From the sequence record SRR2962707_4944: a stretch of 61,351 nucleotides of DNA. One strand, 5' to 3'. Positions 31,132 through 56,570 of the stretch are shown here, one piece after another (positions within the stretch are counted from its first letter, which is position 1; the number at the start of each line of letters is the position of its first letter). The translations under genes and the position numbers were made by a program. The notes beneath the pieces were generated by a model. That model saw only the letters and a list, made by a program, of their open reading frames with translations, did not search any database and was not told the DNA's origin.

Positions 31132-31145
31132 GAAAGAGCCACGCC

Positions 31146-31843: not shown

Positions 31844-31866
31844 AAAAGAAAAGCGCGTTTGATCTG

Positions 31867-32766: not shown

Positions 32767-32919
32767 CAAATTCTCCTCTGGCAATGGGATTAGACTGAAA
32801 GTCACGCACTTGGGCATGGCTGTCCTTGTGGGCGCATCTTTGCAGAACCGAGCAATTTCGATGGGGTTGTCAAAGCCGCAGCGCACTGACCACAAAGGCC
32901 ACGCGCTGCGGCTTACAGT

Positions 32920-33843: not shown

Positions 33844-33867
33844 ATTCGGTCCTCCCAAACCAAAGAT

Positions 33868-34629: not shown

Positions 34630-34661
34630 TCTTCCTCCAATAGGGCAATTTCACTGCTTGC

Positions 34662-34681
34662 AAAAATGGTATACCATTTTT
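34662..34681. promoter_or_regulatory. GntR/FadR-type operator, site 4
   Basis: Perfect 20-bp palindrome AAAAATGGTATACCATTTTT between divergent idnO and idnD. Confidence 0.8.
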
Positions 34682-34728
34682 ACTGTGTTGCAAACCGAGT
34701 CCTTTGGACCGGCAAGGAGGATCACGAC

Positions 34729-36362: not shown

Positions 36363-36370
36363 ACAAACTT

Positions 36371-40177: not shown

Positions 40178-40189
40178 CGGGAGGAAACC

Positions 40190-41155: not shown

Positions 41156-41188
41156 CAAGGCTTCGCCGAGCGATCTGTAAAACAACAA

Positions 41189-41211
41189 AAAGGGGGGCGT
41201 TGCCCCCCTTT
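41189..41211. terminator. bidirectional terminator
   Basis: AAAGGGGGGC-gtt-GCCCCCCTTT between convergent genes. Confidence 0.7.
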
Positions 41212-41236
41212 CCAATTTCTAACTGTCACTTAGTGA

Positions 41237-42178
41237 TTAATTGACAGGCGTCAGCAACGCGTCTCCCGCAAGAAATGCCGAGATATTATCGCGTTGCAAC
41301 TGCCCCATAGCCGCTCGGGTTTCAACCGTTCCTGACCCTTGGTGCGGCTGCAAGACCACATTGTCCAAAGCGGCAAAGCGCGGATTGATATTGGGTTCGT
41401 TCAAGAAGACATCGAGCCCTGCCCCGCCCAAAGCGCCACTTTCCAAGGCATCCAGCATGGCTTCTTCGTCAATGGTTGTGCCCCGCGAGATGTTAATCAA
41501 TACGCCATTTGGACCCAATGCTGCGATGACGTCCTTGGAAACACACTTCTCAGTCTCTGCACCCCCAACCAAAGCAACCACCAAGAAATCAACCTCTTGC
41601 GCCAAGGAGACCGGATCCGCATGGTACGTCCAACCCGGCGTGTCTTTTTCAGAACGTGAATGGTAATGAATATCCATTTTAAACCCTGCAAGACGATCCG
41701 CGATTTCTCGTCCAATACGCCCCAAACCGACGATGCCGGCTTTTGAACCGCTGGCTTTACGATTCAATGGCAGTTCCTGAGTTGCCCACTGCCCGGACCG
41801 TACCAATTGCTCACCGGCACGAAAGCAACGCGCTTGCGACAACAACATCGCGACAGCGGTATCGGCCACATCGTCGTTCAAGACATCCGGTGTATTCGTC
41901 ACCTTGATACCGCGTTCTGATGCATCGACGACATTGATCGCGTCGTATCCCACACCATAGTTGGCAATAACGCCCAGGTTGGGAAACTGGTCCATTTCCG
42001 CCCCACCAAAGGCATGATGGCCCTTGTAGGCAACAGCCTTTACAGCTTGCTTGGCTTCATCGCTCAACGAAGCCGCCTCTTCCAGATTTGCGAGAACCTG
42101 CGCCTGAAGATCGCTGGTCAATGCGGCCAAATCAGTGTCTGTATATTGGCCAAGAGCCAGAATCGTAGGGGTCGTCAT
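41237..42178 (-). CDS. D-2-hydroxyacid dehydrogenase (glyoxylate/hydroxypyruvate or 2-ketoaldonate reductase-like)
   Basis: GVGYD, TNTPDVL, GLGRIG, INISRG, LDVF.NEP, QPHQGS. Confidence 0.88.
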   Translation of the reverse strand: MTTPTILALGQYTDTDLAALTSDLQAQVLANLEEAASLSDEAKQAVKAVAYKGHHAFGGAEMDQFPNLGVIANYGVGYDAINVVDASERGIKVTNTPDVLNDDVADTAVAMLLSQARCFRAGEQLVRSGQWATQELPLNRKASGSKAGIVGLGRIGREIADRLAGFKMDIHYHSRSEKDTPGWTYHADPVSLAQEVDFLVVALVGGAETEKCVSKDVIAALGPNGVLINISRGTTIDEEAMLDALESGALGGAGLDVFLNEPNINPRFAALDNVVLQPHQGSGTVETRAAMGQLQRDNISAFLAGDALLTPVN

Positions 42179-42455
42179 GCGTGTCTCCAGTGTTTGATCG
42201 TGGCGTGCAAAGCGCCGTAAATACTCAACCGATTCGATTGGCGCAAAGCCGACTGTTTCTCGCGAAAAAATCAGCGCCGCCAAAATCGATATGGCTCTGT
42301 AATTATTAGAATAAACACGTAACTGATCCAAGATTCATCACGTGCATATTCCGGGTCCTCCACCTACATCCTGCACTAATATTCCATCGACACCAGCCCA
42401 AAATTGTATGCTCTTTATACCAGTTCCTACATGGTCATCTCGCCAGATCGCAGGC

Positions 42456-42480
42456 AAAAAAAACGCACCCATCGGGTGCG
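42456..42480 (-). terminator. intrinsic terminator of the alginate-like operon
   Basis: CGCACCC-atc-GGGTGCG preceded by A8 (U8 tract on the minus strand), 30 bp after the algL stop. Confidence 0.7.
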
Positions 42481-42509
42481 CTTTCTAAAGAAATAGTCTG
42501 CGTCGAAGC

Positions 42510-43541
42510 TTAGAAATTTGCCCACATCAAGGTCTGATTTCCACCAAGCTTTGAGTAATTCAGCGGGCGGTAGCGCTCTGCCAGCGAGATCAGTTTGGGG
42601 TCGTAGTGAATGGTCAGATACGCTTCTAACCATGCAAGGTTGAACCCTTTCAATTGATCGGTCCCGTCGAAAAAGCTCTGAGTTTTGCCAGTGATACGGG
42701 TCGAATTCCGCCCGTCATTCAGATCTTCAACTGCGAAATCCACCACCCGTTTCAAAGCGCCATTGCAACGCTCAGACAGATCGATTCCCTTGGCACTCAG
42801 CAACGCCGTCGAAACCGTTAGCGGGGCGATTGCGTGCAATTGATAATGCAGCGCATATTTTCCACGCGACATTTCTTGAGGCAAACTGCCATCCGACGAC
42901 GCAGTGCACAAAACATAGGTTGTCGACCAAGCAGACCAGCCACGTATGACCGGATCTTCCAAAATTGTGCTGGTCGCGCTACCTGCCAAGGCCGCCCAAG
43001 CCCGGAGGTTCCCCTGTTTGGCACCATCCGGTGCACTGGCTTCCCAAAACACCATTTGGCGAGTCATCAGTTCTTGCATCCAGGGACGGATCGCCGCCAA
43101 TTGCAAATCAGAACTCCGAAAAGGCATCACTTGAAGCACGACCATGCCGATGCTGGCGATACGGGAACCAATTGTCAGATTTGCCGTGCTTGACTTCAGA
43201 TCAGTCAACGCATTGGCCTGTGCCCAAACAGCGATTTGAGACAAGACGCAGTCAGCAATACCGCGTTGGTCAGCGCCCGCCTCGTGCACTGTGTCTGCTT
43301 GATCCGCAAGGCTTCGCAGGAAGTCGTCAACCGGAGCCAAAGCCTCATCTACTTCTTGGTTTGCCCCCGCATCGATCACAGCTCGGTTCGAGCTGCTTTC
43401 CGAATAGCGACTGCCGTAATCCAATGAATAGATCGGCGTTGGGGCCGCCGGGCATCCTGCTGCCATTGCTTCACTTCCAAGACCGATAGATGCGGCAACG
43501 GCCATCATCAAAGGGGCAATTCGCGTTGCCTTGAGTCTCAT
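42510..43541 (-). CDS. algL: periplasmic PL5 alginate lyase homologue
   Basis: Signal peptide; SRY, CVLSQIAVWAQANAL, DGSLPQEMSRGKYALHYQ, KLGG; GNLRAW at the NNHSYW position. Confidence 0.8.
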   Translation of the reverse strand: MRLKATRIAPLMMAVAASIGLGSEAMAAGCPAAPTPIYSLDYGSRYSESSSNRAVIDAGANQEVDEALAPVDDFLRSLADQADTVHEAGADQRGIADCVLSQIAVWAQANALTDLKSSTANLTIGSRIASIGMVVLQVMPFRSSDLQLAAIRPWMQELMTRQMVFWEASAPDGAKQGNLRAWAALAGSATSTILEDPVIRGWSAWSTTYVLCTASSDGSLPQEMSRGKYALHYQLHAIAPLTVSTALLSAKGIDLSERCNGALKRVVDFAVEDLNDGRNSTRITGKTQSFFDGTDQLKGFNLAWLEAYLTIHYDPKLISLAERYRPLNYSKLGGNQTLMWANF

Positions 43542-46276
43542 TGACCAGCTCCAAATCGAAGGAGGCTCAGAGTATTGGCCGCTTTGCTGCTTCCAGCATT
43601 GGCCGCTTGTTCGAGCCACCGGGTTGCGGATTCCAGATCTCTGGGAGTGCCAATTCCGAATGCTAACGCATAGCCAACTTCTGTCATCGCGGCCACGTGG
43701 CCGTTTTCAGCAGCGTCTTTGAGCCAGCGTGCGGAATTTGCGAGGTCCCCAGGGGACTGAGCTTGTTCACGTAATACCATGCCATACTCGTACTTTGCGT
43801 CGACACTACCAGATTCAATGGCACTTAGATACAGACCACCGATATCAAATCTTTGTTGAATAGCCGTTTGAAGGTCTTCGTCAGCTGTCCTGTAACTTGC
43901 CAAAACCCAGTTTTCGTCACCGGGCACGCCACTGCTCATCAAAGCGGACAAATGTCCGGCAGCGGCAACAGGGTCGTAGGTTTCAAGGTCAGGATTGGCC
44001 GTCAGCAAATACAAGCGACGATGTGCGTTTGCATTGCCTTCACCAACCATGCGCTGGAAGACCGCAACTTCGTTTGGTGCAGCGCCTTCATTGTACAAAG
44101 CCATTTGTGGATTGGACAATCCGAGCTTGGAAAGAGTGTGACCCCCTTCAAAATTCAAAGCGATCTGTCTCCAATGGTACGACCCTTGCGGATTGTCGCG
44201 AAGCGTATACGCGTCGCCAAGCTCATCAGAATCCTTCGTGCTGCACACCATCAAGGAAACGGCGCGGTCGACATAATCATCAACTTTGTTTTCCGGCACA
44301 AAAGGAATGGCAAACATCAGTGCTAGGAAGTCACCGCGGTCTTCGATCTGCTGGGCAAACTGTTGGTAAACGTCCTGCGCAGAGCGCTCTTTAGCTTGTA
44401 GGCGTGACATCAAACGAATGGATGCCCCCTCGCCCCGGTTACCCGACTTTGTCAGAAGCGTAATGATCTCTTCAGCAATCTCCGGTTCTCTGGAGTTGTG
44501 TTCGACCAAGGCAATGGCAAGGTCCAACGCCGTTGTGACACCGTTGTTCAGGTACACACGACGAAACAGCTCAATGGCGAGATTTCGTTCTGCCGCGTTG
44601 GTCGCAAGGCTAAAGTCCAGCTCAGCAAAGGCTTCCAAAACCTGGTCAGAGCGGTCTACCCGCTCACCCCAGAGCCGCTTTGCACTGTCGCGCGCCGTTG
44701 GATCGACTTGAAGACGCTGCGCGAAGTTCGCCACAGATTGCACACGCCCTGCCAAGGCTTGCGATTGAATCTGGGCCAAAGCTTCCGGGTTCCGATAGGG
44801 GCTCAGAACCAAAAGATCATTACCACTTACATGATAAGAGCGGTGCATCGAGGCACTATACGCCCGTGCCCAACGGTCGGCCGAGGCCAATTGCGGCGCT
44901 TCGTTGACCTGGCAGCGGTACAGTGAGTCCAACTTATCCATCGAAGACATCATACCAAACCGGCTTACCGTTTCTGTCAGCAAATCAACCACACGGCCAA
45001 CCTGCTTCGGATCATCCCGATACCGCAACAGCTTCCCGGCAAGGATCTGCATTCCGTCAGCATCTTGACGACGAACCGCTTCTTCCAGGAAAATCAAAGC
45101 CTCGGCTTCACCGGCCCAACGTCCTTTACGGATCAGAACTTCCTTGGCCAGCTCAGTGAATACCCATCCTGGCGCTTCGGTAAGACGTGAAAGCTCTTTC
45201 AGGTATTTGATATAAAGGCTTTCTTCGTCCGCATATTCGCCGTCGATATTTACGGCCAGCTCAAGAAATGGCGTCAAAGAGCCTCGGGTACGCCCATCGT
45301 CTTCGGAATAATTGTAGCCCAGAATGCGCTGCAATTCTTCTTCGTCTACGTCACCGGCCGTTTTGATCTGGGCCAACTGAGTGTCATCAACCGTAATTCC
45401 GCGCTCAACAGCCAGCTTGAGATACTTAAGCATCTCTTTGTTGTCTTTGATTGCTGCATCCGCGTTCAGGTGCAATTCGACAAGACGCCAAGCGCCTTCC
45501 GCGCCACCAAGATCGGCAGAGAATTTGTACCAGGCATAGGCCACATCATAGTTTTGCGAGACGATATCGCCGTTCAGGTATTCGCGAGCAATTCTTTCAG
45601 CCCGTCCACAAACGTTTTCGTTTAAACGGCCAAGCAGACCACCAAACGCCATTGTCACTGTCAGTTCTAACGGCGCGTCCCATCCCGCGATGGGTTTGCC
45701 CTCAAGATCAAAGCGCGCAATGCTCAGCAACGCGTTAGGGTTCCCCCCAAAAGCCGCATCCGTGATCAGCTTGCGGGCATATTCCTCGTCTACCTCGGTA
45801 CCAATGCCATTCAGGAAATATTGCGCCATAATCAAACGCTGTGCATTGGTCATTTCGACCTGACGCTGGCGCAGACGATTGACCAGACCATCGGCCATCA
45901 ATTGCTCGTTACGACCAGCGTCGATATACAACTCAACCTTGGCGACAAGCTCATCAATTCCGGCAAACTCTTCGTCAATCGACGCACGACGCGTAATAAG
46001 AGCATTGATGAAATCAAACCACTTATCGGGGTCATTGCGTTGCAAACGCCTGATATCCCGGCTCAAATATCGAATTCGGACGGGATCAGTCAGCTGGCTA
46101 TCGCCGCCTTCGATCGTCAAGTCATCTTCTTTTGGAACCCGATTTGGAGAACAGATATTCCGAACTTCAATTGAGGGTGGCATAAACGCCATGTCCAGGG
46201 TTCTGGCCGCCGTCATCTGAGGCAATGCCGAAGCAAACAAGGACGTGGCAATCAGGGAAAGAACAGTTCTTTTCAT
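43538..46276 (-). CDS. secreted 912-aa SEL1/TPR-repeat protein
   Basis: Signal peptide; SEL1 repeats, e.g. YFLNGIGTEVDEEYA, YDVAYAWYKFSADLG, AFGIGTPRDLESATRWLEQAANAG. Confidence 0.8.
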   Translation of the reverse strand: MKRTVLSLIATSLFASALPQMTAARTLDMAFMPPSIEVRNICSPNRVPKEDDLTIEGGDSQLTDPVRIRYLSRDIRRLQRNDPDKWFDFINALITRRASIDEEFAGIDELVAKVELYIDAGRNEQLMADGLVNRLRQRQVEMTNAQRLIMAQYFLNGIGTEVDEEYARKLITDAAFGGNPNALLSIARFDLEGKPIAGWDAPLELTVTMAFGGLLGRLNENVCGRAERIAREYLNGDIVSQNYDVAYAWYKFSADLGGAEGAWRLVELHLNADAAIKDNKEMLKYLKLAVERGITVDDTQLAQIKTAGDVDEEELQRILGYNYSEDDGRTRGSLTPFLELAVNIDGEYADEESLYIKYLKELSRLTEAPGWVFTELAKEVLIRKGRWAGEAEALIFLEEAVRRQDADGMQILAGKLLRYRDDPKQVGRVVDLLTETVSRFGMMSSMDKLDSLYRCQVNEAPQLASADRWARAYSASMHRSYHVSGNDLLVLSPYRNPEALAQIQSQALAGRVQSVANFAQRLQVDPTARDSAKRLWGERVDRSDQVLEAFAELDFSLATNAAERNLAIELFRRVYLNNGVTTALDLAIALVEHNSREPEIAEEIITLLTKSGNRGEGASIRLMSRLQAKERSAQDVYQQFAQQIEDRGDFLALMFAIPFVPENKVDDYVDRAVSLMVCSTKDSDELGDAYTLRDNPQGSYHWRQIALNFEGGHTLSKLGLSNPQMALYNEGAAPNEVAVFQRMVGEGNANAHRRLYLLTANPDLETYDPVAAAGHLSALMSSGVPGDENWVLASYRTADEDLQTAIQQRFDIGGLYLSAIESGSVDAKYEYGMVLREQAQSPGDLANSARWLKDAAENGHVAAMTEVGYALAFGIGTPRDLESATRWLEQAANAGSSKAANTLSLLRFGAGQ

Positions 46277-46286
46277 TTGCCGTCTC

Positions 46287-47603
46287 CTAGAAGAAACACG
46301 CGGAAATGCGTGGAGTGCTGCCAAACGGCGCATCAAGTTCAATATCGAGCGTGCGAATACCTTCGCGCCACATCCCGGACACAGGTACATAGAATTGACC
46401 TGTTTTTTGTTGATCCAAGCGACGTGACACCGTCGAGGTTCGCGTGGCCCCTGTCGGCGACGTAAATACGAACCGCGCTTGCGACGCCTCAGAACCGCCG
46501 GTTTCCAACAGTAATGTGTAATCCTGCGACGGGTTCAAAGAGCTAAGGTCCGCCTGAACCCGGTTAGCATCCAAAGACGCAAGAACAGGGATCGGCATGC
46601 GGCATGAACTGCCCGAAGCTGCGATGAGTTCGCGCATTGGCTGGTCACCGTACTGTGCAAGATTGTGATAAACCGGGTTTTCCCAGACCAAAATCGCGGG
46701 CCGCGCCTGTTTGAAAGCTTCAGACGTCAGGTAAGACGAAATCGCCCCATAAGCACCGCCATTGGGAACCGAACGCACATCAACCGCAAGGCCCGTCATT
46801 TCGGACAAAAAGCCGCCAAAGTTCAACGCTGGTTCCGACGAAAATTCAGTACCAACAACGGCAATCTGACCCGTTTGGGAAGCATTGCCGAAAATGTTTG
46901 TCCCACCTTGGGTATTGCCAACTCCGCCGCGTTGCCCTGTGACAAACACTTCGGTTTCGACCTTGGGAAGTTTGATCAGACAGTGACGCTGCAAGACGCG
47001 GCGCATGTCCGAGTCAATTTCCTGCATACCTTGAGATTGGTTTGAAAAGCCGCCCCGCGGCATGCGCATGAAGTTCGCGTTTTGCGACAACTCCTGCGCA
47101 ATGGCTTGGGCCATCAATCGCGATCCTAAGGAATTCAAACGATAATCTGTCTTGAAATATGGCAGCTCAAAACCAGACCCGCCGACCACAAAAGCCCGAC
47201 GCAGGTTTACGGTGACGACACCGGCTTTCTGCAAGCGTTCAACCATATCATCATAAAGAGACGTGGCCACGTTCGGGTCAAACCCGTAGTCATAGGCCCG
47301 CAAAGGGAGTTGCTTGGTCAACACCATGCTTTTCGGTGGCACGGGTGCATAGACCAAGGTTGTGCCTAAAGACGCCAGCGATTGCGAAAGCAACGCTACA
47401 TCTTCGACAGTTTCATCCGAAAACGGATGATGTGTGTACAGTTCCGGTTGAACCCGAAAAAAGACTCCGTCAGCGCCTTCGACACTGGGCAGGCTGTGAA
47501 ACCCGTCCAAATCTCGGCACCCGTAGGTCGACTGCGCATTGGCGGCTTGCGCCACGCCCATAGCTACGGCGGATGCCGCTAGGAACTTAACCAGTCGCTT
47601 CAT
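46287..47603 (-). CDS. algX: AlgX/AlgJ-family SGNH-like periplasmic protein with a degenerate active site
   Basis: G.DG.FFR, YFKTD, VVGTEFS, NFGGFL, YLTSEAFK..RPAILVWE; C-terminal beta-rich domain. Confidence 0.8.
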   Translation of the reverse strand: MKRLVKFLAASAVAMGVAQAANAQSTYGCRDLDGFHSLPSVEGADGVFFRVQPELYTHHPFSDETVEDVALLSQSLASLGTTLVYAPVPPKSMVLTKQLPLRAYDYGFDPNVATSLYDDMVERLQKAGVVTVNLRRAFVVGGSGFELPYFKTDYRLNSLGSRLMAQAIAQELSQNANFMRMPRGGFSNQSQGMQEIDSDMRRVLQRHCLIKLPKVETEVFVTGQRGGVGNTQGGTNIFGNASQTGQIAVVGTEFSSEPALNFGGFLSEMTGLAVDVRSVPNGGAYGAISSYLTSEAFKQARPAILVWENPVYHNLAQYGDQPMRELIAASGSSCRMPIPVLASLDANRVQADLSSLNPSQDYTLLLETGGSEASQARFVFTSPTGATRTSTVSRRLDQQKTGQFYVPVSGMWREGIRTLDIELDAPFGSTPRISACFF

Positions 47604-47619
47604 GGTGTTGCCCATATCC

Positions 47620-48405
47620 TCAATTGGTTTGGGCCGCGTCCCCGTAATGATTGGCGGCCAACTGCTCGATCAGATTTGCGGCCATCGTTGAGACCGCGAG
47701 ATGTTCCGTTTTTTGTGCACGCTCCAAGAGCGCGCGTGCCCTGCCCAGTTCATCCTGGGTCAAATCGGGCTTACGGAGTATAGAAATTGCTTGTTTGAGC
47801 TCTGTGCGCCCATCCTTGTTTGCTTCGGCTTGTGCTTCGATTTTCAAGCGCGTGGCCTCGGACAAAGCGCCAAAAAGCAGCCCTTCACCGTTAAAATCGA
47901 CAACGGCATCAAGCGCCAAGGAATTTCCCGCCCAAGCATGTGGGTATAGGACGGAAATATATTTGTTCACCCTATTCTTGGGTTCCGTTTTCGGATCCAA
48001 AAGATGCATGGCTTCGACCATCTCTGGCAAAGCCCAGACTCTGCCGCCACCGACAGCAATCGCCCCGTAATAGGCGATGTCAGACGCGTTAGCGCTCAAC
48101 CCGCGCGCCATCAGAATATCGACATATTTCAAGGATGCCAAACTGTCCCCGTAATTGGCCAGTTTGCGCAGGTTCTCATCGCTGACCAACTCTCCGGCGA
48201 ACATTGCGCGTCGTGCATTGCGCAACGCCAAAGTTGGTAAACTGCGGGTGCTTTTTAAGCCTTTATCAACAACCACGCTGATTTCGCGCGAGTCCCGATC
48301 GGTTTGTACGGGGATCGGCAAAGCGAATTCCTGTGCCGTCGCTGCACCTGCAGACATGAGCAAGGAAACTAAGCTCACTTTCCAAATTTTGTGCAACATC
48401 GACAT
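47620..48405 (-). CDS. secreted hypothetical protein within the alg operon
   Basis: Signal peptide ending AATA-Q; helical composition; 4-6 bp gaps to its neighbours. Confidence 0.7.
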   Translation of the reverse strand: MSMLHKIWKVSLVSLLMSAGAATAQEFALPIPVQTDRDSREISVVVDKGLKSTRSLPTLALRNARRAMFAGELVSDENLRKLANYGDSLASLKYVDILMARGLSANASDIAYYGAIAVGGGRVWALPEMVEAMHLLDPKTEPKNRVNKYISVLYPHAWAGNSLALDAVVDFNGEGLLFGALSEATRLKIEAQAEANKDGRTELKQAISILRKPDLTQDELGRARALLERAQKTEHLAVSTMAANLIEQLAANHYGDAAQTN

Positions 48406-48411
48406 GTCTTG

Positions 48412-49938
48412 TCAGCTCCCACATTCTACTGAGGGCACAAGCCCTTCGTACAAACCACCGGCTGTCAGAACCATAGGCGTAGAGCCGTCCAGGTTCGCAG
48501 CGATGATCCGCCCCTGCGTTGACAGGTCACCATCGACAAATCTTGGGAATTGGTTGGTAAAGTCATTACGTTCCAGGATCAGGATTTCACCATCCGCCGT
48601 TGCCAAACCGGCCCCGTTCCCCAAAAGAACATTGTCTTCCAGAACAGTCGCCACACCGCTTTTTTGATCCGAAACCCAAAGAGCCGAGCTCCTGTTCCCA
48701 AAAATCCGATTGTCTGTGACGACAACCCCATAGGCCGTCCGGACCTCGATCCCTTTTTGGCGATTGTCCATAACGAGATTATGGGTCACCTCTGCACAAT
48801 GCGATTTGGAGATCGAAATCCCGCCACCACCGCGGTGCCAGACCAAGTTATTGCGGACAATGACATTGTCACTATCGTTGCGCACCACAATCCCAGAACG
48901 ATCCCCGTCCAGCACAACATTCCCGGCAATAACGCCACGAGAAGACCCCTGAAGCAAACGAATTGCATTTGTGGGTGCGTCGCCGGAGAACAGATTACCA
49001 ACAATCCGCGTATCTACTGAGTGTGTCACAACCAAAGAAGGTCCACGCGTGTCGTGGAACCGATTGTTGCGAATGACCATACCGTCCGTCATCGTCGACG
49101 AAACCGAGACGACATTGGTAAACGAGTTGTTTTCGATCACGTTTTGATCGCGTTGGACCAACAATGGGTTGCGCACCAGTGACAAGCCACCAAATTTCGC
49201 TTCACTGCCAAATCCAAGACCATGAAAACTGGCATTGCGCACTTTGATAGACGCGCCCCCTGCGTTAACGACAAAGGGGATAAAATCGTTGTTTGTTGGG
49301 CTGGGTGGACCATCAACAGTGAACTCTGTTCCGTCGACTTCCAGGCGACCGAAGTTCGCCAAAAACGCCCCATCCGTCCGGCTCAGGATAACCTTGTCTT
49401 CCGGTCCAAGAACCAGCGACGCGTCGCTCCAGATGATGACAGGTTTGCGAATGATACCATCCTGAGATTTATCTGCAGACTGCAGCCCAAGACGATCTAG
49501 TTGTTTGAAAATATCCGTCAAAGTGACGGTGCCGGAATAGATAACCAGCGCCTGTGCCTCAGGAGATCCCTGCGCTTCGATCACATCCTGATTGTCTTTC
49601 GCACCGTAGATCTGGGCGATCAGTCCTAATGCAAAGCGCATATCATTGGCTTTTGCATCAATCATGCCCGAAGGACGCGGAGGCTGCGAACCAGTCGCAA
49701 CCGTGACGTTCAGACCATCCAAAGAAACAATGGAACCAAGTCCGGCTTCCTCGACCAGGTTGCGCGCTGAAAGATTCGCGGCAGGTTCTGAAACCATCTG
49801 CGCTGATAGATTTCGTAACTGCGTGCGCAGTTTAGACACTTCATCAACCGTGGCCGCGCTAACGGGCATGGAGGCTAGCGCCATTGCGAAGCAGGCCCCC
49901 AAGGCCTGCTTCATGCGATATGTTGTGCGATCAAGCAT
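48412..49938 (-). CDS. algG: right-handed beta-helix protein, AlgG (mannuronan C5-epimerase) homologue
   Basis: Signal peptide; GTVTLTD, LSRTDGAFLANFG, FIPFVV, F.GLGFG; PbH1 repeats (VIRNNRF, IVGNLF, VIAGNVV, NRQKGIEVR). Confidence 0.7.
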   Translation of the reverse strand: MLDRTTYRMKQALGACFAMALASMPVSAATVDEVSKLRTQLRNLSAQMVSEPAANLSARNLVEEAGLGSIVSLDGLNVTVATGSQPPRPSGMIDAKANDMRFALGLIAQIYGAKDNQDVIEAQGSPEAQALVIYSGTVTLTDIFKQLDRLGLQSADKSQDGIIRKPVIIWSDASLVLGPEDKVILSRTDGAFLANFGRLEVDGTEFTVDGPPSPTNNDFIPFVVNAGGASIKVRNASFHGLGFGSEAKFGGLSLVRNPLLVQRDQNVIENNSFTNVVSVSSTMTDGMVIRNNRFHDTRGPSLVVTHSVDTRIVGNLFSGDAPTNAIRLLQGSSRGVIAGNVVLDGDRSGIVVRNDSDNVIVRNNLVWHRGGGGISISKSHCAEVTHNLVMDNRQKGIEVRTAYGVVVTDNRIFGNRSSALWVSDQKSGVATVLEDNVLLGNGAGLATADGEILILERNDFTNQFPRFVDGDLSTQGRIIAANLDGSTPMVLTAGGLYEGLVPSVECGS

Positions 49939-51337
49939 AGTTCTTCAAGGTCAGAACTTTGTCTGCATCCGGCGCAACTGGCGCTTGGACGTTCAAGAAC
50001 AAAAGTTCTGCTGGCTTGCCCGTCTTGTTATTCAGAGTCACAGCTTCGGCTTCGTTCAAAACGAAACGTTCGCCCTGTTGGTAGGTCTGGACTTCTTCGC
50101 CTTCACCAAGTGTCACCTGCCCCCGGACGACGATTATCTCGCGGCCGTTTGCAGAAACCAGATCCAGAGATTTTCCCGGATTAATTCTGGCAGTCGACAA
50201 TTCAACATTATCGCTGGAAACCATGCGGGTCAGACCATCTTCTTGATCCTTTCCAACGTGGCGTTCCGCTTCCAGACGCTTTTCCTCTTTTAGGAAAGTC
50301 GCGACCTTCTTAACGCTTTGGCAATGACCGACCTGAGTAACCAGCAAGGCATCTGGCGTGTCGATGACGATCACGTCTTTCATGCCCACTAAGGTGACCA
50401 AACGATTGCCATCTGAACGCACCATTGAGTTCGCGGATTCCACGGCGATCACGTCACCATGCAAAACGTTCCCCTGATGGTTCACATCCGATATACCATA
50501 CATCGCGGACCAGCTGCCCACGTCGCTCCAGTCGATATCGAGCGGCGATAGAGCGATACGGTCTGTCTTTTCAAAGACAGCGCTTTCGGTCGGTTCTGAC
50601 TTCGCTTCACTGAAACGAATGGCATTCAGCATCAGACCTTCTTCACGCTCTTCTGCCAGATCGACAGATTTGCGAACAGCCGTCACAGTCTCTGGGTCGA
50701 ACTTGGAATATTCTTCCAGGATCGTAGAAGCCGAGAACATGCTGATGCCAGAAGCCCAATACGCAATGTCGCTTTCGACCAAAAGACGCGCTTTGCGGGT
50801 TGGTGGTTTCTCAACGAAACGCTCAACCGAATGCAGGCCAGGATGCGAAACAATGGGGCCGCTGTCCACAATATAGCCAAAGCCCGTTTCCGCATAGCGA
50901 GGCTTAATGCCGAACGTGATGATATATCCGTCCAAAGCGGCCTGACGCATCGCAGAGATCGTCGTGTTCATGTCCCCTTTGATGACGTGATCCGCTGGAA
51001 GGACCAGCAAAAGCGCCTCAGGGTCGGTCTCCGCCAATTTCATGGCAGCGGCCAAAACAGCAGGACCTGTGTTGCGGCCCATTGGTTCTAGGATAACCTG
51101 CGCATTGACGCCGATTTCTTCGAGTTGCTGATGGACGGTACGACGATGCCGTACCGAAGTGATGATTACTGGGTCGGCGAAATTTTCACCTACATGACGC
51201 TCCACTGTATCCTGAAAGAACGTCTTTGAGTCAGCATCGCCAACTTTTTGAAACTGCTTTGGACTTTGCGTCCGCGAAATTGGCCAAAGGCGAGTTCCGT
51301 TGCCCCCACAAATAATAAGGGGATAGATTTTGGTCAT
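49931..51337 (-). CDS. algA: mannose-1-phosphate guanylyltransferase (AlgA/ManC) with a degenerate C-terminal cupin
   Basis: GGNGTRLWPISR..PKQF, LEPMGRNTGPA, PADH, TGFGYI, FVEKP, WSDVGSW, DTPDALLV. Confidence 0.88.
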   Translation of the reverse strand: MTKIYPLIICGGNGTRLWPISRTQSPKQFQKVGDADSKTFFQDTVERHVGENFADPVIITSVRHRRTVHQQLEEIGVNAQVILEPMGRNTGPAVLAAAMKLAETDPEALLLVLPADHVIKGDMNTTISAMRQAALDGYIITFGIKPRYAETGFGYIVDSGPIVSHPGLHSVERFVEKPPTRKARLLVESDIAYWASGISMFSASTILEEYSKFDPETVTAVRKSVDLAEEREEGLMLNAIRFSEAKSEPTESAVFEKTDRIALSPLDIDWSDVGSWSAMYGISDVNHQGNVLHGDVIAVESANSMVRSDGNRLVTLVGMKDVIVIDTPDALLVTQVGHCQSVKKVATFLKEEKRLEAERHVGKDQEDGLTRMVSSDNVELSTARINPGKSLDLVSANGREIIVVRGQVTLGEGEEVQTYQQGERFVLNEAEAVTLNNKTGKPAELLFLNVQAPVAPDADKVLTLKNYA

Positions 51338-52410
51338 AGCATTTCCTTCAAATCGAGGAGCGCACCGCCTAAAATAGGTTTGGCCAACCGCAACCGCGCG
51401 GACTGTCCAATATCCTCTACACTCAAGCCGCCCTCTTCAGCTACGAGATCCACAGGTACATACAATTCTCCGCGAAGGGCTGACGCATTGGAATTCGAAT
51501 TGATAACAACGCGCACTGGGATTGAGCGACCATCCGCAACATCCAAATATACACGTTCACCATCCATTGCTTTTGCCAATCCTTCGACACTCATCTGAGT
51601 TCTCACTCTGACTCCCACACTAGAGTCGAAAAACGTCAAAATTGGGTCGATAGGAAGAACTGTTGCGCCTTCTACTACGTTATCTGTAACTGTTACTTCG
51701 CAATCACAGGGTAGTTGGAAATTGAGGACATCTCCGCTGTTTGAGTTGATGGAAAATACGACTTCGCCCTGCTTTGCAGCTGGGTTCAGGTAACTAAGTT
51801 GACCCGCCGCCGTCGCACGCATTTCTGTTCCGGCACGCTCAATAAAGACAGGGCGCGCTTCGTAACTTTGTGTGTAACGGGTCAGGATAACATTCAGAGC
51901 CAAGAGAATCAGAACAACCGATCCGACCGCGGCCGCCAGGCTTTTCAGACGACGACGCGGGTCCTCAATTGCCTTTTCTCTTGGTTTTTTGGGTTTAGTT
52001 GGGCCTGTGTAGCCCATCATCGAACCGAGCGATACGAAATCGCCGGCGATAAAACTGTTCAAAATATACCGGAGCTGCGGCAAGTGCGGCCCGGTTGGAT
52101 CAATAAACTGCAGCGCGATTTCGCCATCGTTCCGTGTACCCGCAACCATTGCTTCGGGGAACACTGCGACAGTGAAACCTTCGAAATCGAATTGAATTCG
52201 GATAACGAATTTCGATCCCATTAAGTTCGAATCAAATGCACCAGGTGCATTGATATATGCTGCGGCAACGGAAAGTCCCGTACCTTCAAACTTTTGATCA
52301 CCGATATGAACCGTAAATGGAATCGGCAATACAGGATGTTCCGTGTCGTAAACGAAATCGACGGGAACGGACTGATGGACTTCTGCTGCGATATTCGTTT
52401 GCTCGGTCAT
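51334..52410 (-). CDS. alg44: Alg44-like copolymerase (PilZ-like N-domain, TM helix, MFP-like domain)
   Basis: LRYILNSFIAGDFVSLGSM and PCDC match Alg44; directly follows alg8. Confidence 0.75.
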   Translation of the reverse strand: MTEQTNIAAEVHQSVPVDFVYDTEHPVLPIPFTVHIGDQKFEGTGLSVAAAYINAPGAFDSNLMGSKFVIRIQFDFEGFTVAVFPEAMVAGTRNDGEIALQFIDPTGPHLPQLRYILNSFIAGDFVSLGSMMGYTGPTKPKKPREKAIEDPRRRLKSLAAAVGSVVLILLALNVILTRYTQSYEARPVFIERAGTEMRATAAGQLSYLNPAAKQGEVVFSINSNSGDVLNFQLPCDCEVTVTDNVVEGATVLPIDPILTFFDSSVGVRVRTQMSVEGLAKAMDGERVYLDVADGRSIPVRVVINSNSNASALRGELYVPVDLVAEEGGLSVEDIGQSARLRLAKPILGGALLDLKEML

Positions 52411-52437
52411 GTTACTATCTCTTTTGCCTGATACTTT

Positions 52438-53922
52438 TTATATTTGGGCGAGGAATAGGACCCCAATAGTCAGCCACACAATCGCCAATACATGGTGAAT
52501 GAAGGATTCTTGTGCCTTCAACTTTTCAGACACCGGCACAGCCGCTGCCTCTGACGCGGTTTGCCGCGTCCATCTTTGTTTATTCAATCGGAACAGCACA
52601 AATGTCTTTGTAGCTGCGCCATACACCTGACCGAAGTACAGGATAAGCGGGTGGGTCACAGGGAACCATGTGCCGCGTGTGAGCGCGATGATGACACAAA
52701 AGATGTACCGTGTCGCCATCACCCACGCGATATACAGCGGGATAACAGATGCTGTATGAAGAATTGCCGCGATTGCGACAGAAATCGGTCCAACCAGGGT
52801 GGTCCATGCAGACACACGTTGGTCAAGGATTGACCACCATGTGAACGGGCTAATTCTTCTGGGGCCAAGCTTGATCGCGCGACCATTTGTTCGCATCATG
52901 TTGCCAAACCAGCGAACCATCAATGTTTGAGCACTGCCTAAAAACGTCGGCCGTGGTTGGTTTTCCACCGACCACGAGCGCACATCTGGCAGATATGCCA
53001 TTTCATAGCCGTTTCGAAGCAGCCAGAACCAAGTCGATTTGTCATCGCCTGTCAAAAAGACAACACGACCCAGACGCCAGTGGTCCAGATAATCGTGGTC
53101 AATGCCTTCAATGAATTCAGGATCAACCGCCAAATCGCCGCGGAATACAGACATCCGACCTGTAAGGGTCAACACCTGGTTAGACAATCCCATAGAGGAC
53201 ATCATCACCTGACGTTGGTTGAAACGCAAAATGAACCAATCACGATAAAGGTTCTTTTTCTCGATCAACGCGCCCTCGTCCGTCGTCAAAGCGCCGACTT
53301 TGGGGTTGGTAAAGAAAGGAGCGGACACAGCGTGGATGTCTTCAGGAACAACTGTATCGCCGTCCACGAAGACCACGATATCGCGATGTGTCGGGTTGTA
53401 ATGACGTATGATGCGCAAAGTTTGCGCAATCGCATCGCGCTTACCCTTTGATGAAATCCGGTCAATAACCAGTTCCACTGAGGACATGTCGCGTGGCATT
53501 GTTTCAAAAATCTGCCGGATCAGGCGTTCATCCGCCCCTTCAACGACAGAAGCAACGACAGTAGAGCCGTCTTCGGCATTGGCTGCCGCGTGAAACAATT
53601 TGCGATAGACCAACATGGTGGTGTCGATTTCCATCCCGTAGGTGGTCACCATGAAAAAACAGTGTGACTTGGCGCCTTCGGCCTTACGCGCATTAAATCG
53701 CTTGTGGGCCCGAGCCTTGCGCACCGGATAGACGATGCGGCGGAAGATCACCGACCTTGTAAAGTTCAGGGCTGCCCATGAATAGCGCCAAGCGCCCAGA
53801 AAGCCGAGAATGAAGATTGAGTTTTTCGCCGCATCCAATGAGCCTAGAACCCCCGCCGGAACGGAGGTTGCTAGGAGGACGATGACCGCGAAATAGGCCA
53901 TATGTGTCAATGGGAGGAGCAT
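52438..53922 (-). CDS. alg8: GT2 mannuronan synthase
   Basis: GAWRYSW, GKRDAIA, DGDT, LTTDE, LRFNQR, VLTLTGRMSVFR, HWRLG, LTGDDKSTW, LMVRWFGN. Confidence 0.9.
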   Translation of the reverse strand: MLLPLTHMAYFAVIVLLATSVPAGVLGSLDAAKNSIFILGFLGAWRYSWAALNFTRSVIFRRIVYPVRKARAHKRFNARKAEGAKSHCFFMVTTYGMEIDTTMLVYRKLFHAAANAEDGSTVVASVVEGADERLIRQIFETMPRDMSSVELVIDRISSKGKRDAIAQTLRIIRHYNPTHRDIVVFVDGDTVVPEDIHAVSAPFFTNPKVGALTTDEGALIEKKNLYRDWFILRFNQRQVMMSSMGLSNQVLTLTGRMSVFRGDLAVDPEFIEGIDHDYLDHWRLGRVVFLTGDDKSTWFWLLRNGYEMAYLPDVRSWSVENQPRPTFLGSAQTLMVRWFGNMMRTNGRAIKLGPRRISPFTWWSILDQRVSAWTTLVGPISVAIAAILHTASVIPLYIAWVMATRYIFCVIIALTRGTWFPVTHPLILYFGQVYGAATKTFVLFRLNKQRWTRQTASEAAAVPVSEKLKAQESFIHHVLAIVWLTIGVLFLAQI

Positions 53923-53933
53923 TGCGCTTCCTT

Positions 53934-55253
53934 TTACCAGCAGATGCCTTCGTAAGTGCCATCGGACGTCAGCTCTTTGTTAAGCCGTGTCAGATCCACT
54001 ACGGGACGGGTTTTCGCCGTTTCAGTCAGGCGCTCGACAGTTTCTGCGTAGAAATTACCTACAACCAGCGCCCCTGCGTCATTGATCATACCATCCAGAT
54101 CGGTGGTGATACGCTCAGGCAGGTTCGGGATCACGTCGTTGCCGCGGCCCGCGCCAGGTGTGTGCGTTGCATAAGCTTCGGCAACGTAGGGGTCATAGAT
54201 CGATACTTCGATGCCTTTTTCGATCAAGCGACCCGCCAAAGTGGCCAGTGGGCTTTCACGAAGGTCGTCCGTACCAGGTTTGAACGCGACACCGACGAAA
54301 CCAACGGATTTGGCGCCAGAACTGGTGACCATATCCTCAGCACGTTGAATTTGTGCTTCGTTTGCTTCCAAACACGCTTCCAAAAGATGCGCTTTGATAC
54401 CCTTTTCACGCGCCAAATGACGCAATGCGCGGACATCTTTAGGCAGGCAAGAGCCACCAAAGGCAAAGCCCGGACGCATAAAGTATTTGGAAACAATCGC
54501 CTTGGTATCCGACGTCAGGATCTCCATGACTTTCTGTCCGTCAAGACCGCAAGACTTTGCGATGTTGCCGATTTCGTTGGCGTAAGTCACTTTAACTGCG
54601 CGCCATGTGTTCGAGCAGTACTTGACCATTTCCGCGGTGCGCAGATCAACAACGTTGACATCGCATGGCAGGTCTTGGTTCAGCTCGGTCAGGATTTTGG
54701 CTGTACCTTCATCCATTGCACCGAAAACGATCAGGCCAGGATCATAATAATCTTCGATCGCTGTGCTTTCACGTAGGAATTCTGGGTAGTAGCCCATTCC
54801 GAAGTCGACGCCAGCTTTTTTGCCGGACTCTTCTTCCAGTGTTGGGATACAAGCTGTCTCACACGAACCAGGAACGATGGTCGAGCGGATCACAACTGAG
54901 TGGAACGCATCTTTGTTTTTCAGCGCTTTACCGATGTTTTTGCAAACATCCGTTACATAGACAAGTCCAACCGAACCGTCAGGGGCACTTGGCGTGCCAA
55001 CCGCGATGAAAGAAGCGTCTGTATTGTCGATCGCATACTGAACGTCACTTGTTGCTTCCAACAGTCCGTCAGCAACGGCTTTGGAGATCAATTCATCCAA
55101 ACCGTTTTCAACAATAGGTGTCAAACCTGCGTTGATTGCGTTAATCTTACCTGGGTCAACATCGACCGCGATTACCTGGTGACCATCACGGGCCAAGCAA
55201 GCTGCGGATACTACACCTACGTAGCCAATGCCGAAGACACTGATCTTTGCCAT
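53934..55253 (-). CDS. algD: GDP-mannose 6-dehydrogenase
   Basis: FGIGYVG, VGTPS, PEFLRESTAI.DY, AEMVKY..N.W.A.KVT.ANE, MRPGFAFGGSCLPKDVRAL, FKPGTDDLRESP, EGICW C-terminus. Confidence 0.92.
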   Translation of the reverse strand: MAKISVFGIGYVGVVSAACLARDGHQVIAVDVDPGKINAINAGLTPIVENGLDELISKAVADGLLEATSDVQYAIDNTDASFIAVGTPSAPDGSVGLVYVTDVCKNIGKALKNKDAFHSVVIRSTIVPGSCETACIPTLEEESGKKAGVDFGMGYYPEFLRESTAIEDYYDPGLIVFGAMDEGTAKILTELNQDLPCDVNVVDLRTAEMVKYCSNTWRAVKVTYANEIGNIAKSCGLDGQKVMEILTSDTKAIVSKYFMRPGFAFGGSCLPKDVRALRHLAREKGIKAHLLEACLEANEAQIQRAEDMVTSSGAKSVGFVGVAFKPGTDDLRESPLATLAGRLIEKGIEVSIYDPYVAEAYATHTPGAGRGNDVIPNLPERITTDLDGMINDAGALVVGNFYAETVERLTETAKTRPVVDLTRLNKELTSDGTYEGICW

Positions 55254-55577
55254 GTTATTCTGCCTCTCAAGCTTCACATTTCGTAAGCTCGTTATCTTTT
55301 ATTTTTGTGACTAAATTACGTTTCAATTGTTTCCAAACAAAGAAGAAATGAGGCTAATTTCCGCGATTGGTTCTCGAAGTGTCATTTCTGCATCAAGACA
55401 CTAATCATGGTAGAGACATGCGTGTTTAAACGTAATATGTAGTGACAAGGGTCAGGTTTGGCTTGACCAATTACGGCAAAAAAGCGACAAAATTAGCAAC
55501 AATCCCGACAAATTCGCCGGATCGTTTACAATCAGAACATCAATTAGCACGTTGATTCCCGCTGAAGGAGAGCAGAA

Positions 55578-56570
55578 ATGAAACCTCTGGTTGTTGCCAT
55601 TGTGGTCGTGAGCATGGTGACCGCATGCGATAGTTTACCCAAAATCTCTATTACGATGCCGCAACGCAGCGAATCCGCGGCACCAACGGTGCAAGCGTCC
55701 CCTGCCTCAGAGGTCGAAGTTGCTCAAAAACTGAGCTTCAGTGACTATGCACCAAGAGGTTACGCCCGGCTTCTGAACGAAACTCAACACGGGTTCAGGT
55801 ATTCCGTTCCAGGCGAGCCGGTAAGACGGGGCGCCGTATCGGAGCGTTACGAACTGCGCAGCGATGAATGTGCCGGAAGCGACTGCGGAAAACCTCGTTA
55901 CCGCACTGAAATTCGAGCAGAAAACGCGCGTTCTTCGATTAAGGTCAATAAGGACAACTGGGTTGGTTGGAGCTTTTATAATGCCAACATCAATTCGTCC
56001 GACAAGAATGACTCTTTGAAGACTGTCTTTGGACAATGGAAGCTAGATGGCGACATTCCATCGGCCGTCCGCATTGTTCAACTGGCGCGCGGTGAAGGTA
56101 ATTGGTCTACCTGTGACACCAACATTTGCAGCCGCAGCAATGACACCTCAAAAGACGTCGTTGTCCAGCTTGATGATATGCAACAGGCGATGGGCTGGGG
56201 TGCCGAGCAAAACAACGGATACATCTGCCAATTGTTCAGCATGCAAGAGAAGAAAGGCAAGTGGGTCGACATTGTACTGAACTCCAACTTTGCAAATGAT
56301 GAAACAGGCTACTTAAGGGTCTGGGTCGATGGCGAATTGGCATGTGCCTATAACGGTCGCGTCTCCGCAACCAGTGAAAGAAGACTGCGCCGTCAACCGA
56401 ACCACAGACGCGGTATTTTCGTGAGTTACACCAGCCGCTGGGATCAGACTCATGACGGCGCACCCAAACCCACACTGGTCGCCTATTATGATGAATTCCG
56501 AACAGGCAATAAACGCGAAGATGTGGATACGCTCCTCCTCGAGCGCAAAGCGAAACGCCCAGTCGACTGA
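55578..56570 (+). CDS. lipoprotein with a jelly-roll polysaccharide-lyase-like domain
   Basis: Lipobox VTAC(17); VRRG..SERYELR, RTEI, W.GWSFY, GKWVDIV, GYLRVWVDG, YYDEFRTG. Confidence 0.65.
   Translation: MKPLVVAIVVVSMVTACDSLPKISITMPQRSESAAPTVQASPASEVEVAQKLSFSDYAPRGYARLLNETQHGFRYSVPGEPVRRGAVSERYELRSDECAGSDCGKPRYRTEIRAENARSSIKVNKDNWVGWSFYNANINSSDKNDSLKTVFGQWKLDGDIPSAVRIVQLARGEGNWSTCDTNICSRSNDTSKDVVVQLDDMQQAMGWGAEQNNGYICQLFSMQEKKGKWVDIVLNSNFANDETGYLRVWVDGELACAYNGRVSATSERRLRRQPNHRRGIFVSYTSRWDQTHDGAPKPTLVAYYDEFRTGNKREDVDTLLLERKAKRPVD

Follow-up and report, generated by a model that had tools for sequence, protein, structure and literature searches.

Almost everything established about alginate synthesis comes, to our knowledge, from Pseudomonas and Azotobacter, where the genes follow the order algD-8-44-K-E-G-X-L-I-J-F-A, and we know of no separation of the enzymatic from the scaffold roles of AlgG and AlgX in these bacteria other than by engineered point mutants. 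In one such experiment, P. aeruginosa PDO300 deleted for algX and algG and supplied with AlgX(S269A) and AlgG(D324A) still made non-acetylated polymannuronate, and inactive AlgG still protected the polymer (available passages of Moradali et al. 2015, PMC4436075). Environmental 'atypical' alginate operons have also been reported, which are rearranged and lack algKE and/or subsets of algGXLIJF; one of these, from Dinoroseobacter shibae (Rhodobacterales), combines AlgD-AlgA-Alg8 with AlgF-I-J-X (available passages and supplement 9 of Bundalovic-Torma et al. 2020, PMC7112194). Here we analyze a nine-gene operon at positions 42510-55253 of SRR2962707_4944, a stretch of 61,351 nucleotides (hereafter, the window), for which a preliminary description had drawn its background from Pseudomonas and Azotobacter alone and was incomplete in this respect. 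The genes of this operon suggest, with moderate confidence on our part, that it makes a non-acetylated, non-epimerised poly-beta-1,4-D-mannuronate using a synthase-dependent alginate-type machine in which catalytically silent modifiers have been retained.

The window operon has in common with those of Pseudomonas and Azotobacter the supply of GDP-mannuronate by AlgA and AlgD, the glycosyltransferase family 2 (GT2) polymerase Alg8, an Alg44 protein consisting of a PilZ domain, a transmembrane helix and a membrane-fusion-protein domain, periplasmic proteins of the AlgG, AlgX and AlgL families along with a protein of the tetratricopeptide-repeat (TPR)/Sel1 type, and the leading position of algD. 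The differences lie in the gene order (D-8-44-A-G-orf-X-SLR-L, where SLR is the Sel1-like-repeat protein), in the absence of the AlgE porin and of AlgI/J/F from the operon, and in the functional sites: the window Alg44 is devoid of RxxxR, AlgG of DPHD, and AlgX of its His and Ser, Leu-Arg replaces His-Ser in AlgL, and AlgA has lost the phosphomannose isomerase (PMI) half. Furthermore, the window encodes an extra 261-aa protein and a divergently oriented lipoprotein lyase of the PF14099 family. The architecture given for Dinoroseobacter shibae in supplement 9 of PMC7112194 is different from that of the window as well.

A scan for Alg8 in species-representative genomes yielded 212 species-level relatives, of which the best 80 loci were kept. 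Judging from the record titles, nearly all of the 80 belong to Rhodobacterales, and the closest relative among them is Pseudoprimorskyibacter insulae (83% identity in Alg8 and 91% in AlgD). Of the 80 loci, 54 have the complete set of nine genes with order and strand unchanged, seven more are complete except for the 261-aa gene (L018, L024, L026, L029, L055, L065 and L067), 19 run into the end of the contig or of the retrieved sequence, and not one of the 80 is rearranged. The operon is the property of a large Rhodobacterales family with 212 species-level matches and not of a single organism. Two loci that carry the full operon, L017 and L068, are on contigs labelled Granulosicoccus sp. (Gammaproteobacteria) and 'uncultured Exiguobacterium sp.' (Bacillota), respectively; because both nest inside Rhodobacterales clades of the Alg8 tree, they appear to be either mis-binned contigs or recent transfers.

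Assignment of the cytoplasmic steps to the AlgA-like protein, AlgD and Alg8 is backed by strong homology. Across its full length, AlgD matches the P. aeruginosa GDP-mannose 6-dehydrogenase (PDB 1mfz, E 1e-121), far ahead of UDP-glucose dehydrogenases; it scores 381 bits with TIGR03026, and the GGSCLPKD motif with the catalytic Cys is invariant in 77 of 77 orthologues. Alg8 is a GT2 enzyme (Pfam Glyco_tranf_2_3, E 8e-29) in which D187-G-D189 (DGD), T291-G-D-D-K295 (TGDDK) and L334, R337 and W338 (L..RW), its counterparts of the DxD, TED-like and (Q/L)xxRW motifs, are invariant in 79 of 79 sequences; sequence comparison with the PDB gave no match at E up to 0.01, and close relatives are named 'mannuronan synthase' or 'glycosyltransferase Alg8' in public sources. 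The view of the locus as a diverged system of the alginate type, in which precursor supply and polymerase are unimpaired, is upheld. Bifunctional AlgA joins a mannose-1-phosphate guanylyltransferase to a C-terminal cupin PMI domain with a metal-binding His. In the AlgA-like protein the guanylyltransferase half is intact (Pfam NTP_transferase, E 2e-43, and ManC_GMP_beta-helix), no PMI or cupin match was obtained in Pfam, and the score with TIGR01479, 353 bits, is below the cut-off of 373. After residue 360 only 4 positions are conserved at 95% or more, with no His beyond H360, and we interpret the C-terminal half, from its sequence, as a vestigial cupin (PMI) domain. The poorly conserved remnant occupies residues ~360-468, where the PMI cupin should be; in a gammaproteobacterial comparator of 411 aa the domain has simply been lost.

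The 358-aa product of the third gene matched nothing in Pfam and, by sequence, nothing in the PDB; with its profile the Alg44 PilZ structures came out on top, at E 0.08 only. An AlphaFold2 (AF2) model built from 44 orthologues (predicted local distance difference test, pLDDT, 83) consists of an N-terminal barrel, one long transmembrane helix and a beta-rich periplasmic domain. Foldseek matched the barrel to Alg44 PilZ (4rt0/4rt1/4xrn; target template modelling score, TM, 0.74-0.78, root mean square deviation 2.3-2.9 Å over 106-107 residues) and the periplasmic part to the membrane-fusion proteins BesA and MexA, so that the modelled protein has the PilZ-transmembrane-membrane-fusion architecture of Alg44, recognised by fold only. 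At the positions of RxxxR and DxSxxG, with which PilZ domains bind cyclic diguanylate (c-di-GMP), the window has T..EHP..V (T23/V27) and G.S..A (G45/S47/A50), that is, TEHPV...GLSVAA where a gammaproteobacterial homologue has RQFAR...DWSVGG. RxxxR is found in one of 77 Alg44-like orthologues, and there it lies in an N-terminal extension; its site is taken by a conserved (D/E)-(E/D)-H-P. When 1.84 billion cluster representatives were searched with the profile, 479 matched, and motifs were counted in those of the best 150 that are near full length, 121 in all. RxxxR is missing from the 73 of these with the highest scores (His kept in 67 and Ser in 72 of the 73), 43 more distant ones have R..HxR followed by D/E/N-x-S-x-x-G (Ser in 43 of 43, Gly in 41 of 43), and the remaining 5 are gapped, so that the loss defines a discrete Alg44 subfamily. 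With both arginines of RxxxR replaced together with the Asp and Gly of DxSxxG, we infer that the Alg44-like protein cannot bind c-di-GMP in the canonical way and that polymerisation is likely to be controlled in another way. Eleven of the 13 best-scoring Alg44-like representatives (P0124-P0134) have acidic or Gly-rich low-complexity extensions of 130-240 residues before the PilZ-like domain; the window protein has no such extension.

The AlgX-like protein of 442 aa is a clear member of its family (Pfam ALGX, E 6e-35; PDB AlgX 4knc, E 3e-23). Of the catalytic residues of P. aeruginosa AlgX, D174, H176 and S269 (available passages of PMC4436075), the window protein keeps the first as D157 and has R159 and E257 at the positions of the other two (GDHHW against TDYRL and GTS against GTE). 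Open reading frames (ORFs) for algE, algI, algJ and algF are absent from the window operon, and algI (MBOAT), algJ and algF are likewise missing from 71 of the 80 loci. The remaining nine, from Cypionkella, Pseudorhodobacter, Yoonia and Loktanella (L057-59, L070, L071, L073, L076, L077 and L079; hereafter IJF+, as opposed to IJF- for loci without these genes), have the same backbone and gene order as the window, with algI and algJ inserted between the beta-helix gene and the slot of the 261-aa gene and algF after algX, and they finish with the same SLR and lyase genes. These sister operons share with the window an Alg44 without RxxxR, a beta-helix without DPHD, the SLR protein and the variant NLRAW lyase; they differ in having algI/J/F, an intact AlgX triad, and a LuxR-type regulator and an RTX protein upstream. 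The Asp-His-Ser triad of AlgX (D-x-H-W and G-T-S) is present in exactly these nine loci. In the other 63, the His position is occupied by R (60), K, Q or G, and the Ser position by E (35), D (14), A (5), G (4), T (2), Q, R or S (1, in L015). At the genome level, AlgF was found in none of eight genomes with the operon type of the window and in both of two IJF+ controls, and each of five IJF- genomes has a single gene of the ALGX family.

In an Alg8 tree with the root placed on gammaproteobacterial Alg8, a basal grade is made up of the IJF+ loci, and the 68 others all fall into a single clade (SH-aLRT, the Shimodaira-Hasegawa-like approximate likelihood ratio test, 100), and one change suffices to explain the distribution of the acetylation genes. 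Independent support for this direction comes from Pseudomonas AlgX and AlgJ, which share the triad, so that the intact site should be the older state. These observations fit a single loss of acetylation after which AlgX was kept as a non-enzyme. On the rooted tree, the ancestral Rhodobacterales operon would have had algI, algJ and algF together with a catalytic AlgX, and in one lineage, which includes the window, the three acetylation genes would have been lost once and the active site of AlgX thereafter; the DPHD motif of AlgG would have disappeared earlier than the acetylation genes.

Directly upstream of algD, all nine IJF+ operons carry a LuxR/GerE-type response-regulator-like gene and eight of them also a gene for an RTX-repeat protein of 690 aa whose N-terminus gives a weak parallel-beta-helix signal (for example, the gene pair L057:5280-7352 and L057:7625-8428). 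Domains 39-41% identical to the N-terminal domain of the latter occur in G001 and G002 within frames of 1267-1375 aa, on other contigs, and the window has no homologue. The layout of this protein is reminiscent of secreted epimerases of the AlgE type, an assignment that we considered and rejected, as it has no DPHD and no match to the epimerase A-module, and its PDB matches are confined to the RTX repeats.

The 508-aa beta-helix protein matches Pfam Beta_helix and NosD, and its best named matches are to AlgG, at low scores (46 bits with NF038177, for which the cut-off is 700, and E 1.5e-7 with PDB AlgG 4ozz). The DPHD epimerase motif of AlgG, residues 324-327 (available passages of PMC4436075; for the role of the motif, see also PMC4444821), aligns with V-THS in the window protein, and DPH, DPND or NPHD is found in none of 74 orthologues. 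At 95% conservation, these 74 proteins retain the Asn ladder, Gly, Ala, Pro, Phe, Leu, Gln and two Cys, and no acidic residue, His or Tyr. The IJF- clade conserves two Trp and nine Arg/Lys residues, namely K248, K395 and seven Arg, a pattern consistent with a groove that binds a polyanion and also compatible with catalysis. No AlgG-like gene beyond the operon copy was detected in five IJF- genomes, four of which gave a match, each at the operon. A search of 301 gammaproteobacterial genomes with NF038177, the model of canonical AlgG, retrieved nothing at cut-off, and another atypical operon surfaced instead.

The last gene encodes a homologue of AlgL, a polysaccharide lyase of family 5 (PL5), that is recognised by Pfam Alginate_lyase, by PDB AlgL (4ozv/4ozw, E 1e-24) and by NF001469 (135 bits). 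The NNHSYW segment of AlgL reads GNLRAW in the window (N-L-R-A-W for N-H-S-Y-W), with Leu for His202 and, farther on, His for Tyr259; the catalytic Tyr256 is retained along with Asn201, Trp205 and Arg249. In window numbering, N204, L205, R206, W208, R252, Y259 and H262 are invariant in 25 of 25 complete orthologues, and NLRAW is also found in two IJF+ sister operons. According to the study that describes the roles of the AlgL residues, the H202A mutant is inactive in vitro and behaves like the wild type in vivo (PMC8829089). Given the latter result and the retention of the catalytic Tyr and Arg, we do not call the AlgL homologue dead. The term 'pseudo-enzymes', applied in the preliminary description to the accessory homologues, is accordingly not established for the AlgL homologue with its Tyr, Arg, Asn and Trp.

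Divergently from algD lies a gene whose product matches Pfam Polysacc_lyase (PF14099, E 4e-19) and PF14099 clusters in an atlas search (score 0.95), along with a weak match to glucuronan lyase A in the PDB (2zzj, E 0.008); its signal peptide carries a VTAC lipobox, which marks it as a lipoprotein. This lyase gene is located directly upstream of algD in 39 of the 80 loci, across which no other flanking gene is conserved. To judge from the family match, the PF14099 lipoprotein is probably a second, active lyase of the system.

Substitution rates were estimated by the Nei-Gojobori method for 17 locus pairs, pairs that include the window being saturated (dS > 1.5). For every gene in all 17 pairs, dN/dS is within 0.02-0.39. 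In the pair L045-L046 (dS ~0.14) it amounts to 0.14 for the beta-helix, 0.13 for the 261-aa protein, 0.13 for the AlgX-like protein and 0.05 for the SLR protein, and in L011-L012 (dS ~0.4) to 0.25, 0.25, 0.15 and 0.12, respectively; the accessory genes thus evolve faster than algD and alg8, yet are clearly constrained. The motif substitutions, which we aligned to AlgG, AlgX and AlgL of the PDB and counted across the family, are real, and are shared across the operon family along with the conserved gene order; they are neither strain-specific nor accompanied by neutral dN/dS, the combination that would speak against repurposing. Conservation of the substitutions together with purifying selection argues for repurposing rather than decay, as the preliminary description had proposed. 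A decaying relic that no longer makes any polymer could be imagined from the joint loss of several catalytic or ligand motifs, but the nine frames are intact here and in 54 of the 80 loci, the core motifs do not vary, the closely linked genes finish with a terminator, and the range of dN/dS given above is that of selected genes; we find such decay scarcely credible.

The eighth gene encodes a protein twice the size of AlgK, which has ~475 aa, and without a lipobox. AlgK is an outer-membrane lipoprotein with ~10 TPR-like repeats that binds AlgX and AlgE. The SLR protein has Pfam Sel1 matches at the C-terminus only; its AF2 model (pLDDT 83) contains ~50 helices and no strands, and Foldseek retrieved generic TPR/SLR solenoids alone, at TM up to 0.34; none of the 44 matches listed is AlgK. 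In 43 sequences, 79 columns are invariant. Inspection of the sequence revealed no lipobox, and there is no beta-barrel. A complex prediction for residues 25-442 of the AlgX-like protein and 520-912 of the SLR protein, in which alignments were unused, scored 0.00 and gives no verdict either way. By analogy with Pseudomonas, where AlgX binds with its N-terminus to the final TPRs of AlgK (available passages of PMC9734138), the SLR protein is a candidate AlgK counterpart and the probable docking scaffold. The 261-aa protein had no match in Pfam or NCBIfam, and its PDB profile search gave only a designed helical repeat (E 0.18); the sole lead is the atlas label 'Sel1 repeat family' (score 0.91), and hhalign against the SLR protein gave a probability of only 11%.

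The absence of accessory genes claimed in the preliminary description stands for algE, algI, algJ and algF, which have no ORFs in the operon, with AlgF in none of eight and an AlgE porin in one of ten related genomes; for algK it was overstated, the all-helical 912-aa Sel1/TPR protein being the obvious functional counterpart, if as a candidate only. The 'new secretion partners' of the same description were a conjecture, as an outer-membrane component was found nowhere. In nine of ten carrier genomes, a search confined to the AlgE porin family Alginate_exp (PF13372) found nothing, and the lone match, in the tenth, lies on another contig and has an internal stop; there is also no beta-barrel among those operon products that were folded or matched to a family. 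This could mean that the polymer is not exported through a porin at high molecular weight and instead is retained in the periplasm or on the cell surface, or leaves as oligomers cut by lyases. The missing porin and beta-barrel, the two lyases attached to the operon, one of them a lipoprotein, and the lack of any conserved flanking gene besides the lyase would all suit such a fate, but a large TPR/SLR scaffold is typical of systems that are coupled to an outer-membrane pore (available passages of PMC9734138), and a porin of an unrecognised kind may be encoded elsewhere, the search having covered one porin family. We therefore regard the retention or piecemeal release of the polymer as improbable.

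The same genome searches bear on the possibility that the system is an ordinary one, with algK/E/I/J/F and an active epimerase encoded elsewhere in the genome. The searches covered genomes of relatives, one of the ten related genomes has the Alginate_exp match, and on other contigs G001 and G002 encode the RTX proteins whose N-terminal domain resembles a beta-helix. However, apart from AlgF and AlgE, a second gene of the ALGX family and a second AlgG-like match are each absent from all five genomes searched, the AlgX and AlgG homologues of the operon are without catalytic residues in every member of the window's operon type, and the RTX protein, as noted, has the hallmarks of no epimerase. An ordinary system of dispersed genes is thus very unlikely.

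Several points weigh against a machine with silent modifiers. The composition of the polymer is deduced from genes alone, and the homology to AlgG is weak, at 46 bits. The root of the Alg8 tree depends on a single long outgroup branch (1.86), and the split of nine against 63 loci in the AlgX site is not independent statistical evidence because it reflects one evolutionary event. The genome-wide searches cover relatives with Alg8 56-83% identical to that of the window rather than the genome of the window, and, with no AlgE-family porin in nine of ten carriers, secretion is left unexplained. Finally, the conserved E/D-H-P of Alg44, the Arg at the His position of AlgX (60 of 63), NLRAW in all 25 lyases and the nine conserved Arg/Lys of the beta-helix could mark new activities instead of silence.

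If so, the accessory proteins would be neo-functionalised, with the beta-helix, the AlgX-like protein and the PL5 homologue modifying or cutting the polymer differently, and the product would be a polyuronate decorated or processed in some other manner. Beta-helix lyases of the PL6 type do use Lys/Arg catalysis, which lends interest to K248, K395 and the seven Arg conserved in the IJF- clade; the Arg of AlgX and the N-L-R-A-W and H262 of the lyase could be read likewise, all the more as the lyase keeps the catalytic Tyr and Arg and H202A AlgL is like the wild type in vivo (PMC8829089). Against this, the beta-helix has none of the acidic, His or Tyr residues at 95% conservation in the 74 proteins, the position of the AlgX nucleophile varies among E, D, A, G, T, Q, R and S, which is unlike an active site, and the acetyl-donor machinery AlgI/J/F is missing, so that we consider neo-functionalisation unlikely, if less so than the alternatives above.

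In the machine with silent modifiers that we favor, the AlgA-like enzyme makes GDP-mannose, which AlgD oxidises to GDP-mannuronate, and Alg8 polymerises the latter and passes the polymer through the inner membrane together with its Alg44-like partner, which would be subject to a control other than canonical binding of c-di-GMP. In the periplasm, the AlgG-like, AlgX-like and SLR proteins and, in most species, the 261-aa protein may form a non-catalytic conduit that guides and protects the polyanion, and the PL5 homologue and the PF14099 lipoprotein lyase may clear or trim it. The PDO300 double mutant, in the passages of PMC4436075 available, keeps silent AlgX and AlgG in the machine and is the engineered equivalent of what this operon appears to be by nature. 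That construct, however, still has AlgK, AlgE, AlgI/J/F and an Alg44 that binds c-di-GMP, whereas the roseobacter state has evolved and is conserved in at least 63 species-level loci.

A more distant comparison is provided by two gammaproteobacterial loci, G089 (L088, G089:C1:3764000-3783900) and G019 (L087), in which algD-alg8-alg44-algA are followed by an AlgG domain and then by a PL5 lyase and giant Sel1 proteins. Like the window operon, this stretch contains no AlgE; it is without AlgX as well and encodes two giant Sel1/TPR proteins of 825 and 1012 aa. Identity to the window is 44% for Alg8 and 45-47% for AlgD. In contrast to the window, Alg44 has a canonical PilZ domain (RQFAR, DWSVGG), DPHD is kept in an AlgG domain that ends a 1251-aa protein, and AlgA is a 411-aa guanylyltransferase without a cupin.

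A literature search, in which subscription journals were not covered, found no published description of the window operon in Rhodobacterales. Phaeobacter, Roseobacter, Jannaschia, Marinovum and Ruegeria do not occur in 12 of the 18 supplementary files of PMC7112194, and the available passages of that paper contain neither a motif-level analysis nor a pseudo-enzyme interpretation. Synthase-dependent alginate-type systems, including 'atypical' forms, are thus already known, and Alg8 had already been named 'mannuronan synthase'. What appears to be new relative to the papers searched is a combination of features: throughout the family the c-di-GMP site and two catalytic sites have been lost in genes under purifying selection, a sister clade has kept acetylation, the SLR protein is giant, and there is no AlgE.

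The features of the locus are collected in Table 1. All nine ORFs occupy the minus strand, one behind the other, from 42510 to 55277. Neighbours overlap by up to 8 nt or are separated by up to 27 nt, with 4-nt ATGA overlaps in the algA/alg44-like and lyase/SLR pairs, and directly after the lyase stop codon comes a hairpin of 13 bp followed by a U-run (-28 kcal/mol, z -3.8 relative to shuffled sequences); the tight packing, the terminator and the coordinates are all as first described. The algD ORF opens at a GTG, and the likely start is an ATG at 55253 with GAGAGG 9 nt upstream. The SLR ORF encodes 950 aa, and the likely start is an internal Met with a signal peptide; for the lyase, the likely start is at 43541. 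Signal peptides were recognised by eye in the sequences of five periplasmic products. A consensus scan for promoters and terminators gave counts no higher than in shuffles and also missed the real terminator.

Table 1. Features of the alginate-type locus of SRR2962707_4944, with the extents of the underlying ORFs
Feature	Position	Strand	ORF extent	Basis
algD, GDP-mannose 6-dehydrogenase	53934..55253	-	53934-55277	PDB 1mfz, TIGR03026, GGSCLPKD
alg8, GT2 polymerase (mannuronan synthase type)	52438..53922	-	52438-53922	Pfam Glyco_tranf_2_3, motifs
alg44-like co-polymerase: PilZ-like barrel, one transmembrane helix, periplasmic membrane-fusion-protein domain	51334..52410	-	51334-52410	fold
algA-like mannose-1-phosphate guanylyltransferase, vestigial C-terminal cupin (PMI) half	49931..51337	-	49931-51337	Pfam NTP_transferase
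AlgG-like periplasmic right-handed beta-helix without DPHD	48412..49938	-	48412-49938	Pfam Beta_helix, NosD
261-aa periplasmic helical protein, accessory	47620..48405	-	47620-48405	no family match
AlgX-like SGNH-fold protein, catalytic His and Ser replaced	46287..47615	-	46287-47615	Pfam ALGX
912-aa periplasmic Sel1/TPR superhelix, candidate AlgK-like scaffold	43538..46276	-	43538-46390	Pfam Sel1, AF2
PL5 AlgL-like lyase, variant active site	42510..43541	-	42510-43619	PDB 4ozv/4ozw, NF001469
intrinsic terminator	42458..42486	-		13-bp hairpin and U-run
AT-rich divergent intergenic region, 324 nt, presumed promoters	55254..55577	.		sequence
lipoprotein polysaccharide lyase, PF14099 jelly-roll	55578..56570	+		Pfam Polysacc_lyase

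None of the listed sequencing runs is recorded as RNA. Short contigs from three runs guessed to be RNA and from one DNA run cover parts of the operon. Three contigs, from the runs guessed to be RNA, end at 55272-55291, just upstream of the algD start; two of them end in adapter and a contig from the DNA run reads through, and as contigs reveal neither transcript level nor transcript ends, the signal is too weak for calling a transcription start. Downstream of the operon, at 27712-42331, the window contains a sugar-acid catabolic neighbourhood with an ILVD/EDD-type dehydratase, short-chain and Zn dehydrogenases, an SMP-30 gluconolactonase, a PfkB kinase, a 2-hydroxyacid dehydrogenase and a D-erythronate dehydrogenase (395 bits, above the cut-off); this neighbourhood does not recur beside the operon elsewhere among the loci. 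Farther away, at 10021-14773, there are ordinary genes for large subunits of an Mrp-type Na+/H+ antiporter (Proton_antipo_M, MnhB and MbhD/E domains).

The operon family looks like a natural version of the AlgG/AlgX point-mutant experiment, maintained under purifying selection in dozens of species, and the existence of a catalytic sister lineage offers pairs of cultured strains for a direct test of the scaffold hypothesis. It also raises the questions of how an Alg8-Alg44 synthase is gated without the c-di-GMP arginines and how a polyuronate crosses the outer membrane without a porin of the AlgE type. As a bolder and rather tentative extension, one could imagine that roseobacters widely combine an Alg44 that senses a ligand other than c-di-GMP through (D/E)-(E/D)-H-P, AlgG and AlgX as a pure pseudo-enzyme scaffold, and an AlgE-independent export of polymannuronate organised by a giant non-lipidated Sel1 superhelix. 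If true, bacterial polymannuronate would be a common, so far overlooked part of marine biofilms and particles, and, given that the carriers abound in the sea in association with surfaces and algae, such a source would matter for marine gels, for biofilms and for the ecology of alginate degraders.

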